A DNA stretch of 64,000 nt from an uncultured Parachlamydiaceae bacterium (GCA_963742415.1 CAVULX010000004.1:448001-512000), one strand, 5' to 3'. Numbered from the stretch's first letter, positions 41,786-49,772 are shown. Made by a program: numbers and translations. The notes: generated by a model from the sequence alone, not told the origin.

Positions 41786-42767
41786 TTATTCCGCCATCCA
41801 AATGGCATCAATAAACCATTTTTTGCTGTCGAAGAAATGTTTTATTGGTTTGAACGAGGCATTCGAGGCCATTTTATCAGTTTGCTCCACGGTGAATTTT
41901 TGAGATGTCTCCATATCAATAATCTCGTCTTTTAAAAAGTGAACAATTTCACCATTTATCTTTATATGTTGGTTGCTTAGGCTAACCAGGTAACTTTTAC
42001 AGACGCCGGTGACGGGGTCATAGGTTGGAAAATGGTCAAATTGGGTAATATCAAAATTGCCATTAAGTTCGCGGTTTATACGCTCGAGCAGGTTTAAATT
42101 GAACTGTTTGGTGATGCCTTCTTTGTCGTTATAAGCGGCCAGCACTGTTTTGGGATTTTTTTTAAGATCGAAACCTATTAAAAGCAAATCGTTGGGAGAT
42201 AAATGGTTGCGTAACTCCTCGCAGAAGCTCTCTGCCTCGGTTATCGGCATGTTGCCAATGTTTGAGCCAAGAAACAAGATCACTTTCCGTTTATTTGAAA
42301 TGGACGTCGCTTTTTCGAGCATTTCTAAATATTCCCCGTTTAGGCCCATTATCTGCAAGCCTGGTAAAGTTACCGAGAAGGTGAGGTTAAGACACGATAT
42401 TACATTTTCGGATATATCGATAGGTAAATAGGTAAAATCAACTTTATTATCAACTAAATATTTTAACAAATAAGTTGACTTAGCAGCATTGCCAGCGCCG
42501 AGATCGATGAGGTCGAAGTCATCGCCATCGCCAATAATGGCCTCACATATTTCGGTTGTTTTTTTTGAAAATATTTCCATTTCGCAATGTGTAGGATAAT
42601 ATTCTTTACAGTTCATTAAGTCTTCAAAAAGCTTATCGCCTATGGCATCATACAAATACTTTGGGTTCAGCTTTTTCGGGAAAGCTTGTAAACCTACAAT
42701 CACATCCTTATAAAACTTGTCGCTTTTAGATTTATTGAGCCGACTAATCCCCGATTTTTAATTCCAT
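41786..42767 (-). CDS. egtD: L-histidine N-alpha-methyltransferase (probable true ATG at 42767, one base out of frame)
   Basis: PKYLYDAIGDKLFE, EYYPTHCE, IDLGAGNAAKS, FLGSNIGN, GFDLKK, AYNDKEGITKQFNLNLL, ETSQKF. Confidence 0.92.
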
Positions 42768-42790
42768 GTTTTTTTCTCAGGAATTTATTT

Positions 42791-43959
42791 TTATTTGGCC
42801 AGTCTTATGCCGGTAAATTGCCACCTTAAATTTGTTTGAAAAAAATTGCGGTAAGTACTGCGGCTATGCCCCAACGGTGTAACTTCTGATGCACCGCGTA
42901 ATACATTTTGGTTAACCATAAACTTACCATTGTATTCACCAATTGCTCCCGGCGCTTTTAAAAATCCCGGGTAAGGGAGATAACTACTTACTGTCCATTC
43001 CCATCTTTTACCCCAGTTAAACTGGTTCGACGCGACTTCCCACTCGAACTCAGTGGGCAAACGGAAGCCTTTCCACGAAGCATAGGCATAGGCTTCAAAA
43101 TAGCTGATATGGCAAACCTGTTCCTTTAAATTTAAAGGTTCCAGTCCACAAAAGTGTAGTGGTGCCATTCGCCATCTATTAAATGCCAATACAGTGGCGC
43201 TTCAATTTTATTGGTTTTTACCCAATCCCAGCCTTCGGCATGCCAATGGCGAAAATCGTGGTAACCACCGCTGTTTATAAATTCAAGGTACTCGGCATTG
43301 GTAACCAGGCTTGGATTTATTTCAAAGGCATTCAAATAAACTTTGTGAGGGTTAAGCTCATTGTCAAAACAAAAACCTTTACCCTTAAAGCCTATCTCAT
43401 AAACACCTTCGTTAAGCTTAATAAACGCGTTGATTTTTGGCTGCTCCACTTTTGGCGAGACGTAATCTTTCGAATAGGCATGGAATAGCGGGTTATGGCC
43501 CAGGATGTATTTAATATCTGTATATAAAAGTTCCTGGTGTTGTTCTTCGTGGTTTAAACCTAAAATAAGCAGTTCTTTAACATCTTCGCTGGGGTCTTTG
43601 CACAAAAAATTACTCATGGCGTTATCCACATATTCGCGGTACAGGTTAATTTCAATTACTGTGGGCCGGCTAAGGTTACCCCGGTCTGTACGGATTACCC
43701 GGTTACCTACCATTTCATAGTAACTGTTGAATACATAATTATATTCGGGGTTGAATTCCCGGTAGCTCATAAAATAAGGTTTCAGGATAAAGGTCTCAAA
43801 AAACCATGTGGTGTGGCCTAAATGCCATTTGGGCGGACTCACAAAATCAATAGGCTGCACAACATAATCCTCCGTTTGCAGCGGACTACAAATTTTTTCG
43901 GTGTGCTTGCGAACTTTTATATAACGGTCAAGCATAGTCGTGTTTACAATTGATTCCAT
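42791..43959 (-). CDS. egtB: Ergothioneine sulfoxide synthase (split by an indel near 43140)
   Basis: [34 protein letters not shown] iron motif, FGE-like [22 protein letters not shown]. Confidence 0.92.
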
Positions 43960-44256
43960 GTTTATGTTTTATCCAAATAGTTTTTATGTTATCAGGGGGG
44001 AACTGCTGATGCGATGTTGAAGCCCATTAGTTTTAGCTATGTCATATTGTGTCATTTTTTCATATCATTTTTCAAATTTCTTTTTGACATGATCGTAAGT
44101 CATAGAACTGAGCAGCAGGAATTTATGTAAAATTATTAGTTTGCTCGAAATTTGATCTTTGATAAAACAAAACTATACTGCTGGCGGCAGCATAAGTTCA
44201 TCGGAAGTTTTATGAGATGTGTCGCTGTATATAATGATCAACGTCAGCTACGCCAG

Positions 44257-47600: not shown

Positions 47601-48337
47601 GTCATCTCGATGGGATATTGTTGTGCTTGGATGAAGTCGCTGACATAAGACACGGCGGGAGACTGAATCAAATCTTGAAAAGAACCTTTTTGAATGATCT
47701 TCCCAAGACGCATCAAAATAATTTCGCTCCCTAGATAGGCTGCCTCGCGCATATCATGTGTCACTAAAATAACCGTTTCTCGGAGATAGGAAAAAATCTG
47801 TTTAAGTTGCTGTTGCAATTCAAAGCGTATAATGGGATCAAGAGCTGCCAGCGGTTCATCTAAAAGAATATAGTCAGGATTGAGCATGAGAGCTCGCATT
47901 AAGCTCACTCGCTGACGCTCTCCACCCGATAGCTGTAAAGGATAAGAATGCAAAATGTTTAAGGGAAGTTGAACAAGATCGCACAATACAGCGATTCGCT
48001 TATCAATAGTTTCGGAAGAATATCCTAGGAAGCGAGCAGACAGAGAAACATTATCCTTAACATGTAAATGAGGGAATAATCCTCCATCTTGAATGACATA
48101 GCCAATTTTTCTGCGCAAAAGATCAATATTTACATCATTGACTTCTTGATCGTCAAAAAAGATTTGACCTTCTGAGGGAGGAATTAATCCAACAATGAGC
48201 CGAAGTAGAGTCGATTTACCACAACCACTTGGACCAATCAAAACGGTTGTCTTTCCATCCTCAATGGTCAAAGTAGTCGGTTCTAATGCGTGATGATCAT
48301 CGAAATATTTAGAAACTTTTTTAAGTAATATAGCCAT
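47594..48337 (-). CDS. ABC transporter ATP-binding subunit (OpuBA/ProV-like)
   Basis: GPSGCGKST, IGYVIQDGGLFPH, LSGGERQR, LLDEP, VTHD. Confidence 0.93.
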   Translation of the reverse strand: MAILLKKVSKYFDDHHALEPTTLTIEDGKTTVLIGPSGCGKSTLLRLIVGLIPPSEGQIFFDDQEVNDVNIDLLRRKIGYVIQDGGLFPHLHVKDNVSLSARFLGYSSETIDKRIAVLCDLVQLPLNILHSYPLQLSGGERQRVSLMRALMLNPDYILLDEPLAALDPIIRFELQQQLKQIFSYLRETVILVTHDMREAAYLGSEIILMRLGKIIQKGSFQDLIQSPAVSYVSDFIQAQQYPIEMTC

Positions 48338-48392
48338 AATTGTTTCTATAAAGTAAAGACATGAAAGTGTAAATTAGAAAAAAAGAGATACT

Positions 48393-49772
48393 ATGAACCA
48401 GAAATTTGACGCCATTGTCATTGGAACTGGCCAGGCAGGCCCTTTCTTAGCGAAAAGTTTATGTCAAAAAGGATACAAAGTCGCCATTATTGAACAGGCT
48501 CACTTCGGCGGAACTTGTATAAATACTGGCTGTACACCTACTAAAGCGCTTGTTGCAAATGCTAAAATTGTCCATTCGGTGCGCAATGGCAAAGCTTTTG
48601 GAGTTGATATTGATCATTTTGAAATAGACTACAAGGCAATCAAAGCTCGGAAAGATGCCTTAGTCGAGGCCGGTACAGAATGGGTGAGAAATTCACTGCA
48701 ATCAACAAAAGGATGCACAGTTTTAGAAGGGCATGCATCCTTTGAAGGCCCCAATCAAGTTAAAGTGGGAGACAACCTTCTAGAAGGAGACAAGATTTTT
48801 ATCAATGTTGGAGCTCGCTCCTATATCCCGGCTATACCCGGACTTCAAAAAATTCCCTATCTCACCAATAGTTCTCTTTTGGACATGGACTCTATTCCTC
48901 CCCATCTTTTGATTTTAGGCGGGGGATATATTGGTCTTGAATTTGCGCAAATTTTTCGCCGCTTTGGCAGTCGAGTTACTGTCATCCAAAGAAATCCCTC
49001 CATTATGCCCAAAGAAGATCAAGACATCTCTAAAGCAATACAAAAAATTTTGGAAAAGGAAGGGATTGAGTTTTTCACAAATGCGACCAATTTTAAGATT
49101 CTTCCCGATAGCCAAGAGGGACATATTCTTGCTCAACTTGAACAAAATGAAAAAAAGCAAGAAGTTTCAGGCACGCATTTATTAATCGCTACAGGGAGAA
49201 TTCCTAATACAGATAACCTAGAACTAGATAAAGCGAAAGTCATAGTGGATAAGAGGGGCTTTATTACCGTCGATGATCAGCTGCTCACATCTCAATCCCA
49301 CATCTGGGCTCTCGGTGATTGTAATGGAAAAGGAGCATTCACCCATACATCTTATAATGACTTTGAAATCGTAAGGGATAATCTCCTAGAAAATGGATCG
49401 CGAAAGATCACCGATCGCATTCCCATTTATGCACTTTTTACTGATCCACCCATGGGAAGAGTAGGTCTAACAGAGCAGGAGGCAAGGCAACAGCATGAGG
49501 ATGTTTTGGTAGCCAAACTCCCCATGACGGCTGTCGCACGAGCCCGAGAAAAAGGAGAAACCGAAGGATTCCTAAAAATTATAGTGGAAGAAAAAACGAA
49601 GCAGATCTTAGGAGCTTCCTTTTTGGGAACATCCTGCGACGAGGTTGTCCAGTTAATTGCTGTCATCATGGTCGCTAAAGCACCTTATTCTGTGATAGAA
49701 CGGACCGTGCTTATTCATCCCACTGTCTCTGAGCTGATTCCAACACTTTTATCTAAGCTCGCTAAAGTGTAA
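48393..49772 (+). CDS. Pyridine nucleotide-disulfide oxidoreductase (MerA/RclA-like)
   Basis: GTGQAG, GGTCINTGCTPTK redox-active CxxxxC, GGGYIGLE, C-terminal IHPTVSE; no MerA C-terminal CC pair. Confidence 0.9.
   Translation: MNQKFDAIVIGTGQAGPFLAKSLCQKGYKVAIIEQAHFGGTCINTGCTPTKALVANAKIVHSVRNGKAFGVDIDHFEIDYKAIKARKDALVEAGTEWVRNSLQSTKGCTVLEGHASFEGPNQVKVGDNLLEGDKIFINVGARSYIPAIPGLQKIPYLTNSSLLDMDSIPPHLLILGGGYIGLEFAQIFRRFGSRVTVIQRNPSIMPKEDQDISKAIQKILEKEGIEFFTNATNFKILPDSQEGHILAQLEQNEKKQEVSGTHLLIATGRIPNTDNLELDKAKVIVDKRGFITVDDQLLTSQSHIWALGDCNGKGAFTHTSYNDFEIVRDNLLENGSRKITDRIPIYALFTDPPMGRVGLTEQEARQQHEDVLVAKLPMTAVARAREKGETEGFLKIIVEEKTKQILGASFLGTSCDEVVQLIAVIMVAKAPYSVIERTVLIHPTVSELIPTLLSKLAKV

Follow-up and report, generated by a model that had tools for sequence, protein, structure and literature searches.

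Genes of the cluster and integrity of the reading frames

The window analysed here is a 64,000-nucleotide stretch from an uncultured Parachlamydiaceae bacterium (GCA_963742415.1, CAVULX010000004.1:448001-512000). Positions 41786 to 49772 of it contain a gene cluster that combines egtD and egtB, the synthesis genes of the antioxidant ergothioneine, with a betaine-type ATP-binding cassette (ABC) importer and a flavoprotein disulfide reductase. A sequence-only reading of the window had placed egtD, egtB and the importer on one strand and the reductase gene divergently, 55 bp from the start of the ATPase gene. Open reading frame (ORF) and profile searches confirmed the genes, their positions and the divergent layout; the reading had, however, missed two frame breaks and two genes inserted between egtB and the importer.

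The intact egtD gene (41786-42703, minus strand; Pfam PF10017, TIGR03438) encodes a 305-aa L-histidine N-alpha-methyltransferase of the hercynine-forming type. The egtB gene (42791-43959, minus strand; TIGR03440) encodes a type II sulfoxide synthase, ends 87 bp upstream of egtD on the same strand, and is represented by two ORFs (43132-43959 and 42791-43189). The inserted genes, also on the minus strand, encode a small zf-UBP zinc-finger protein of 117 aa (44257-44610; Pfam PF02148, E 4.4e-12) and a 380-aa fusion of DJ-1/PfpI and glyoxalase/VOC domains (44627-45769; Pfam PF01965 and PF00903). The importer consists of an OpuAC-type binding domain (subcluster F-III) fused to a permease (46118-47600, minus strand; Pfam), which is likewise split into two ORFs (47073-47600 and 46118-47134), and of a 247-aa ABC ATPase (47594-48337, minus strand) that scores 124 bits on Pfam ABC_tran and 222 bits on TIGR01186, the proV subfamily. 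The 55-bp divergent intergenic region (48338-48392) lies between the starts of the ATPase gene and of the gene for a 459-aa, RclA-like class I flavoprotein disulfide reductase (48393-49772, plus strand; NF004992). For context, a tRNA-Asn gene (40299-40372, plus strand; ARAGORN, Rfam) forms the left flank of the lineage-specific segment.

The egtB frame is lost near position 43150, where a single base is missing, and the frame of the importer fusion gene is lost in the A-run 47111-47116, which contains a single extra A. The direction of each error is settled by near-identical contigs from public metagenomes: two runs, each from a different study, have an additional base after 43151, and one run has one base fewer at 47111. 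Identical single-base differences are obtained from alignments to two chlamydial relatives (G092 and L090) and to three Sphingobacteriaceae contigs (L161, L162 and L164), all described below. Moreover, intact relatives match both halves of egtB and of the importer gene over their full length, and there is no other lesion: the egtB pieces are contiguous in L161 (81% and 82% identity), and the importer gene is an intact 490-aa ORF in G092 (81-85% identity). Essential genes of the same window are also shattered. The nusG-rplKAJL-rpoB-rpoC region (8850-19900) is broken into many short ORFs by repeated frame losses, and among the 59 ORFs scanned, Pfam hits place rpoB in at least five, rpoC in seven and nusG in two; the sole rpoB locus of the genome is thus repeatedly in and out of frame. 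Yet a 3395-aa ORF of approx. 10 kb (27397-37584) is intact, which indicates that assembly indel errors are patchy and strongly localised. Because relatives read through both positions and essential genes are broken nearby, errors of assembly are the most likely cause of the two frame breaks, and with high confidence egtB and the importer gene are treated as functional.

It could be argued from the same two breaks that the cluster is decaying and that this chlamydia neither makes nor imports the compound. Such a reading is very improbable: each break involves one base with no further lesion, no living cell could have its sole rpoB shattered along with rpoC and nusG, and the completeness of the genome is only 84%, although it comprises just 4 contigs, compared with 96-99% in many relatives of the same family.

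None of the public sequencing runs covers half or more of the stretch, and no listed run is recorded as RNA. Three contigs (X1, X2 and X4) cover egtD-egtB and the zf-UBP/DJ-1 unit, with zero cover at 46325-47125, and another (X3) covers the segment from the DJ-1 gene to the reductase gene, not 42854-44188; these contigs bear on the presence of the genes only, not on their arrangement. Very many contigs from four metagenomes match, at 85-95% likeness, the segment 44456-44989, which takes in the 3' portion of the DJ-1/glyoxalase gene and the beginning of zf-UBP. The summed contig depth there is 40-250, versus less than 10 elsewhere; the segment is thus conserved at the DNA level in many soil organisms.

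Synthesis enzymes, importer and reductase

Residues 3-302 of EgtD align with positions 7-302 of the 304 positions of Methyltransf_33 (308 bits, Pfam PF10017), and the best match among solved structures is the mycobacterial EgtD (E 2.6e-42). The two EgtB pieces score 326 and 184 bits on TIGR03440 and cover model positions 2-265 and approx. 259-413, corresponding to the DinB_2 and FGE-sulfatase domains. Their best solved match is EgtB of Chloracidobacterium thermophilum (6qki/6o6l; 246.7 bits, E 2.7e-72); since the mycobacterial enzyme (4x8b) is matched far less well, at 37.6 bits, the window EgtB is assigned to type II. The C. thermophilum enzyme uses cysteine and the mycobacterial one gamma-glutamylcysteine. 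The window pair resembles the C. thermophilum-type two-gene cluster in that EgtB keeps the FNSYYE and His motifs, egtD adjoins on the same strand, and egtA, egtC and egtE are absent. Unlike that cluster, it is found in a chlamydia, lies inside an island with an importer and a reductase, and has an egtB that is out of frame as assembled. No dedicated C-S lyase was found in the genome, where the best match to EgtE scores 79.5 bits against a cut-off of 400; a generic pyridoxal phosphate (PLP)-dependent lyase would thus have to finish the pathway.

In the importer, the binding domain is N-terminal to the permease: OpuAC positions 2-138 fall on one piece of the gene, and positions 141-256 together with BPD_transp_1 on the other (Pfam). 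The domain is about equidistant from the glycine-betaine ProX of Archaeoglobus fulgidus (AfProX), Helicobacter pylori EgtU (HpEgtU) and Streptococcus pneumoniae EgtUC. The family motif GSKRFTESY is invariant in all 30 aligned homologues, as are the four cage tyrosines (Y75, Y118, Y196 and Y220) and the clamp residues K24, T78 and R155, which were mapped via the AfProX and HpEgtU alignments. Given this invariant cage and clamp, a betaine with a carboxylate is the expected ligand.

The nearest described system is the ergothioneine importer EgtUV (EgtU/EgtV, formerly OpuF, BilE or ProWX) of S. pneumoniae, Listeria monocytogenes and H. pylori, which shares the plan of an ATPase and a fused permease/binding-domain protein. 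In the terms of PMC9732360, the window domain belongs to subcluster F-III, with the four-residue aromatic cage, the Lys/Thr/Arg clamp and a Glu four residues before that Arg. The order of the domains differs, however, as in EgtU the permease precedes the binding domain, and the window domain is no nearer to EgtU than to the glycine-betaine ProX. According to PMC9732360 and PMC12922746, EgtU residues Gly244 (Ser in H. pylori) and Ile243/Pro296 sit at the thione sulfur of ergothioneine, and a G244F mutation lowers ergothioneine affinity approx. 100-fold. Where EgtU has Ile/Pro followed by Gly/Ser, packing on the thione sulfur and a water network, the window domain has Arg-Phe. The window importer is thus not EgtU, and its assignment as an EgtU orthologue was rejected on the reversed domain order, the Arg-Phe pair and the lack of the invariant Gly.

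The reductase contains the motifs GGTCINTGCTPTK and HPTVSE and the redox-active residues Cys42 and Cys47. It has no NmerA domain and no C-terminal Cys pair, the protein ending in ...PTLLSKLAKV, which bears out the earlier statement that the Hg-type Cys pair is missing. Among curated models, it passes only NF004992 (PRK06370.1-4), an unnamed 'FAD-containing oxidoreductase' family, with a score of 659.5 against a cut-off of 629 and with residues 1-458 aligned to positions 1-457 of the 459-position profile. Named assignments were rejected: the protein scores 394.7 on RclA (NF040477; cut-off 740), 344.7 on Har (NF041853; cut-off 650) and 350.7 on the mercuric reductase MerA (TIGR02053; cut-off 454.45), for which the C-terminal Cys pair is also missing, and it falls below every curated cut-off for GR, Mtr, CoADR, TrxR-type enzymes and Lpd.

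The closest solved structure is that of Escherichia coli RclA (6kgy, 304 bits). Together with Har ('MerA') of S. pneumoniae and Staphylococcus aureus, RclA shares with the window enzyme the architecture of class I pyridine-nucleotide disulfide oxidoreductases, with CxxxxC, a His-Glu dyad and no extra domains; unlike them, the window reductase lies beside an importer and egt genes rather than rclBC. RclA and Har are reported to reduce hypothiocyanous acid (HOSCN), an S-OH compound (PMC9335216, PMC9483559). Fold and two-electron chemistry are also shared with the disulfide reductases of low-molecular-weight thiols (glutathione, mycothione, bacillithiol and coenzyme A) and with the mammalian selenocysteine-containing thioredoxin reductase (Sec-TrxR). 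According to PMC8868364, Sec-TrxR reduces ergothioneine disulfide and 5-oxo-ergothioneine directly and is the sole enzyme reported to do so; unlike it, the window reductase contains no selenocysteine.

Distribution of the genes in chlamydiae and other bacteria

The host genome (2.69 Mb, 41.6% GC) encodes four TLC nucleotide transporters, in contrast to none in 14 control genomes, and the homologues of the reductase at 62-63% identity are named Chlamydiota/Chlamydiales. Judging by its gene content, the host is an environmental chlamydia. Two F-box-like proteins of 388 and 409 aa are encoded at 20482-23988; with the giant 3395-aa ORF, they are typical of the eukaryote-interaction genes of amoeba-associated chlamydiae.

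EgtD is rare in this phylum: it was found in 5 of 400 scored genomes, the host included, whereas the 45 genomes of the host's family yielded none. Outside the host, the best match in the phylum is 37% identical. In three of the four other genomes with EgtD, egtB adjoins; in none of the four do the flanks examined contain the importer, reductase or DJ-1 gene. The remainder of the cluster has a different distribution. An orthologue of the reductase (55-79% identity) was found in 11 other genomes of 401, and the block of importer, reductase and DJ-1 gene recurs at 79-92% identity in two chlamydial genomes without egtBD. One of them, G092, contains the importer (81-85% identical), the ATPase (85.5%), the divergent reductase (79%), zf-UBP (92%) and the DJ-1 fusion (92%), and an additional gene of the zinc-alcohol dehydrogenase type. 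The other, a Parachlamydiaceae metagenome-assembled genome (MAG) with the locus L090, contains the DJ-1 fusion (91% identical), reductase, ATPase and importer. The divergent layout is kept in both, and the 55-bp spacer is alignable among all three genomes and approx. 80% conserved. In a further genome (G170), in which no EgtD was found, the reductase adjoins an importer of different architecture. The closest relative of the same family (G414) keeps dusB and an ABC-F gene (77-78% identical), with none of the cluster upstream. The GC profile rises to approx. 0.48 in the DJ-1/glyoxalase gene from approx. 0.40 around it. No att-like direct repeat of at least 16 nt was detected in 40000-51000, and this includes repeats of the tRNA-Asn. 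By its patchy parts and composition, the cluster is a horizontally acquired mosaic island.

Metagenome contigs were searched with EgtD, and the six closest loci (L161-L166) were compared. In four of them (L161-L164), which derive from Sphingobacteriaceae, the genes for the reductase, ATPase, permease/binding domain, EgtB and EgtD follow one another in this order on one strand, with EgtD 66-71% and EgtB 75-82% identical to those of the window. The operon is translationally packed, with gaps of 6, -8 and 0 nt in L164. NF004992 is the best-scoring model for the L164 reductase (544 bits), which keeps CxxxxC and shares 43-46% identity with the window enzyme. The sources call the close homologues of this protein 'mercuric reductase' of Mucilaginibacter/Sphingobacteriales. 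The importer is built differently. In the fusion protein (L164:7188-8762) the permease comes first and the binding domain is circularly permuted, residues 238-377 corresponding to the C-terminal half and residues 378-518 to the N-terminal half of EgtUC/OpuBC-type domains, and the permuted domain has Lys-Ile-Phe at the Lys-Ile-Gly position of EgtU. Each of the five operon genes has its best match in the host genome in the window cluster; the operon flanks have no close homologues there, and contexts differ between contigs. L162 contains an extra 148-aa ORF without a Pfam hit, and a DUF427 gene was looked for in L161-L164 and not found. In L165 and L166 (EgtD 56-59% identical), no egtB, importer or reductase is present within contigs of 5.4 kb and 10.6 kb. 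The egtB-egtD pair of the window was probably acquired from a Sphingobacteriaceae-like lineage.

The Sphingobacteriaceae operon thus has the same three functions as the window. It is a single operon, unlike the window, where the genes are in separate units and the reductase is divergent; moreover, it is without DJ-1 or zf-UBP genes. Since the triad recurs in a packed operon as well as in a mosaic, with different importer architectures and with reductases only 43-46% identical, a shared substrate class is favoured over chance.

The position of the reductase gene as the first gene of the egtBD operon in L161-L164 could also mean that the enzyme is biosynthetic and not a recycling one. It might then reduce the sulfenic acid, or a derived disulfide, left by the C-S lyase where the thiol pool is insufficient, and the importer might salvage hercynine for EgtB. 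A sulfenic acid intermediate is named for the EgtE C-S lyase in PMC4493562, the host genome has no EgtE or other dedicated partner, and the importers of the egt operons are without the sulfur-recognition Gly of EgtU, which suits the sulfur-free hercynine. Importer and reductase are nonetheless kept in G092, L090 and G170, where no EgtD was found and where the reductase cannot serve synthesis, and a biosynthetic role is considered improbable.

The contexts of the window's importer family were surveyed in 80 genome loci, mostly from Burkholderiales, with flanks of approx. 10 kb. Two of the 80 have the importer next to egtBD or a selenoneine cluster. In one of these (L114), egtD-egtB is divergent from and adjoins the importer. 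In the other (L054, a Sheuella sp. MAG, 9159-19119), a complete selenoneine-type cluster starts with the ATPase and importer genes. On the same strand there follow genes for a SenA-like protein (390 bits against a cut-off of 420), for SelD, for selenate ABC transport and for EgtD (354 bits), and the gene for SenB (373 bits) is divergent. At a third locus (L105), egtB is 7 kb from the importer. In a Pseudomonadota MAG (L055, 11539-12375), a 278-aa C-terminal remnant of the reductase (58% identity over 200 aa) is convergent with an adjoining importer of the window's family; as only this remnant is present, it was rejected as a reductase gene.

A candidate system for synthesis, import and re-reduction

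These observations point to a horizontally assembled redox island of approx. four transcription units in an amoeba-type chlamydia. EgtD would convert histidine to hercynine, type II EgtB would join cysteine to hercynine, and a generic PLP-dependent C-S lyase would release ergothioneine. The ABC importer is predicted to take up a carboxylate-bearing trimethylammonium compound, most likely a histidine betaine: hercynine, ergothioneine or selenoneine. Ergothioneine oxidation ends, with loss of the sulfur, in hercynine, on which EgtB also acts. Hercynine would fit the binding pocket because this has none of the sulfur-recognition residues of EgtU. With NAD(P)H and Cys42/Cys47, the RclA-like flavoprotein might re-reduce two-electron-oxidised ergothioneine, that is, its disulfide, its sulfenic acid or 5-oxo-ergothioneine; the sulfenic acid is also the candidate product of the C-S lyase step. 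The DJ-1/glyoxalase and zf-UBP proteins would represent a co-travelling electrophile-stress unit, and G092, L090 and G170 would only import and reduce. This combination of EgtBD synthesis, histidine-betaine import and flavoprotein re-reduction is the preferred reading, to which slightly less than an even chance is given. The identification of the genes, the mosaic history of the island and the occurrence of the triad elsewhere are direct observations; both substrates and the direction of the chemistry are predicted from homology and gene context. The sequence-only reading had already proposed a make-import-recycle cluster for ergothioneine, an idea for which the support comes from gene context.

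Several observations weigh against the preferred reading, and they begin with the binding pocket, which resembles that of a glycine-betaine binder. By the published residue assignments for EgtU, the window domain and all 30 homologues have Arg where EgtU Ile/Pro contacts the thione sulfur and Phe where EgtU has the invariant Gly. In 77 of the 80 importer-family loci no egt or sen gene is present in the available flanks, and four chlamydial importer orthologues of the same family (55-69% identity) have neither egt genes nor a reductase as neighbours. The nearest characterised relatives of the reductase act on HOSCN, hypochlorous acid (HOCl) or Cu and not on a thiol disulfide, RclA being a hypothiocyanite reductase. 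The four other EgtD genomes of the phylum have no reductase at E<=1e-100, and 9 of the 11 loci with a reductase orthologue have no importer nearby. The surroundings of these orthologues vary, with a histidine kinase and sigma-54 regulator in three cases, a copper P-type ATPase in one and the Ast pathway in one. Within the synthesis genes, EgtD scores 272.1 on TIGR03438, just below the cut-off of 290.9 (EgtD of L164 scores 291.6), no EgtE exceeds its cut-off in the genome, and the assembled egtB, like the importer fusion gene, is not in one frame. Transcription seems to be separate for the three units: a scan returned 10 promoter-like sites (18.2 expected) and 10 terminator-like sites (8.3 expected), three of which fit gene ends and give weak hints of separate units, although the scan performed no better than chance. 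A comparison of gene neighbourhoods, which the earlier reading had suggested as a check, thus gave a divided answer: egtBD, importer and reductase occur together in four of the six closest metagenome EgtD loci, but EgtD is found in none of the 11 other genomes of the phylum with a reductase orthologue. The Sphingobacteriaceae loci were, in addition, found via EgtD, so that egtBD is seen to carry these partners, which is not to say that the reductase family generally travels with egtBD.

The same observations raise the possibility that the segment is an island of stress genes with no shared substrate, consisting of an osmoprotectant pump for glycine or proline betaine, a defence enzyme of the RclA/Har type directed at HOSCN, HOCl or copper, and an electrophile-handling DJ-1/glyoxalase protein, beside which egtBD happened to land. 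The binding domain matches AfProX (E 8e-38) as well as it matches EgtU domains (2e-37 to 1e-34) and shares the Lys-x-Phe of AfProX, the solved structure nearest to the reductase is that of RclA, and the reductase orthologues occur in varied contexts and without EgtD in all 11 other chlamydial genomes. Moreover, importer, reductase and DJ-1 gene are kept without egtBD in G092 and L090, and the segment is a mosaic with a GC jump. Such an island does not explain, however, why the same three functions form one packed operon in four Sphingobacteriaceae contigs, with an importer that is built differently and a reductase that shares only 43-46% identity, or why in Betaproteobacteria members of the importer family are found within a selenoneine operon and next to egtD-egtB, which is hard to obtain by chance within 10-kb flanks. 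An island of unrelated stress genes is considered possible but unlikely.

Dedicated flavoprotein disulfide reductases are known for glutathione, mycothiol, bacillithiol and coenzyme A. To our knowledge, no dedicated bacterial ergothioneine reductase has been recognised. Searches for 'ergothioneine reductase' and for ergothioneine together with RclA found no paper, and the accessible text of papers that contain 'ergothioneine disulfide' and 'reductase' names no bacterial enzyme (subscription journals were outside the search in both cases). The word 'reductase' is absent from a 2026 review, and neither egtB nor egtD is mentioned in the paper that described EgtU. The flavoprotein accompanies egtBD and an importer in two lineages that are not related to each other, which makes it a concrete candidate for the missing bacterial enzyme. 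It may tentatively be suggested that bacteria have in the NF004992-type flavoprotein an enzyme dedicated to reducing oxidised ergothioneine, which with EgtBD and a non-EgtU importer would complete a make-import-reduce system. Such a system would have been assembled at least twice from non-orthologous parts, in the Sphingobacteriaceae operon and in the chlamydial mosaic, and some chlamydiae might keep the import-and-reduce half for external ergothioneine; this broader proposal is a doubtful one.

The earlier reading knew of no description of ergothioneine synthesis in chlamydiae, and a literature search agrees, as none of the matches listed is on this topic. Synthesis is rare in the phylum and appears here to result from transfer from soil Bacteroidota, which bears on how amoeba-associated chlamydiae handle oxidative stress. 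The importer would represent a betaine-importer family that is distinct from EgtU and tied to hercynine-derived metabolites, including those of a selenoneine cluster. The chlamydial host, the Bacteroidota-like donors, the assembly of the triad a second time from non-orthologous parts, the pairing of import with reduction where synthesis genes are missing, and the link between this importer family and a selenoneine cluster all appear to be new.

Some further features of the surroundings may be mentioned. Among the chlamydial reductase orthologues, one has a copper-type P-type ATPase with an HMA domain directly upstream (L039:7096-9399), three (L038, L040 and L044) lie beside a small ORF, a histidine kinase and a sigma-54 response regulator, and one that is 55% identical to the window enzyme (genome G342) has a DUF427 protein directly downstream (L043:11389-12021). 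The flanks of the island in the window contain genes of the defence or addiction type: an ORF with an Abi_C domain by the tRNA-Asn gene (40341-41228), a HI1420-type antitoxin (54565-54849) and a zeta-toxin/AAA_33-like kinase (55852-56442).

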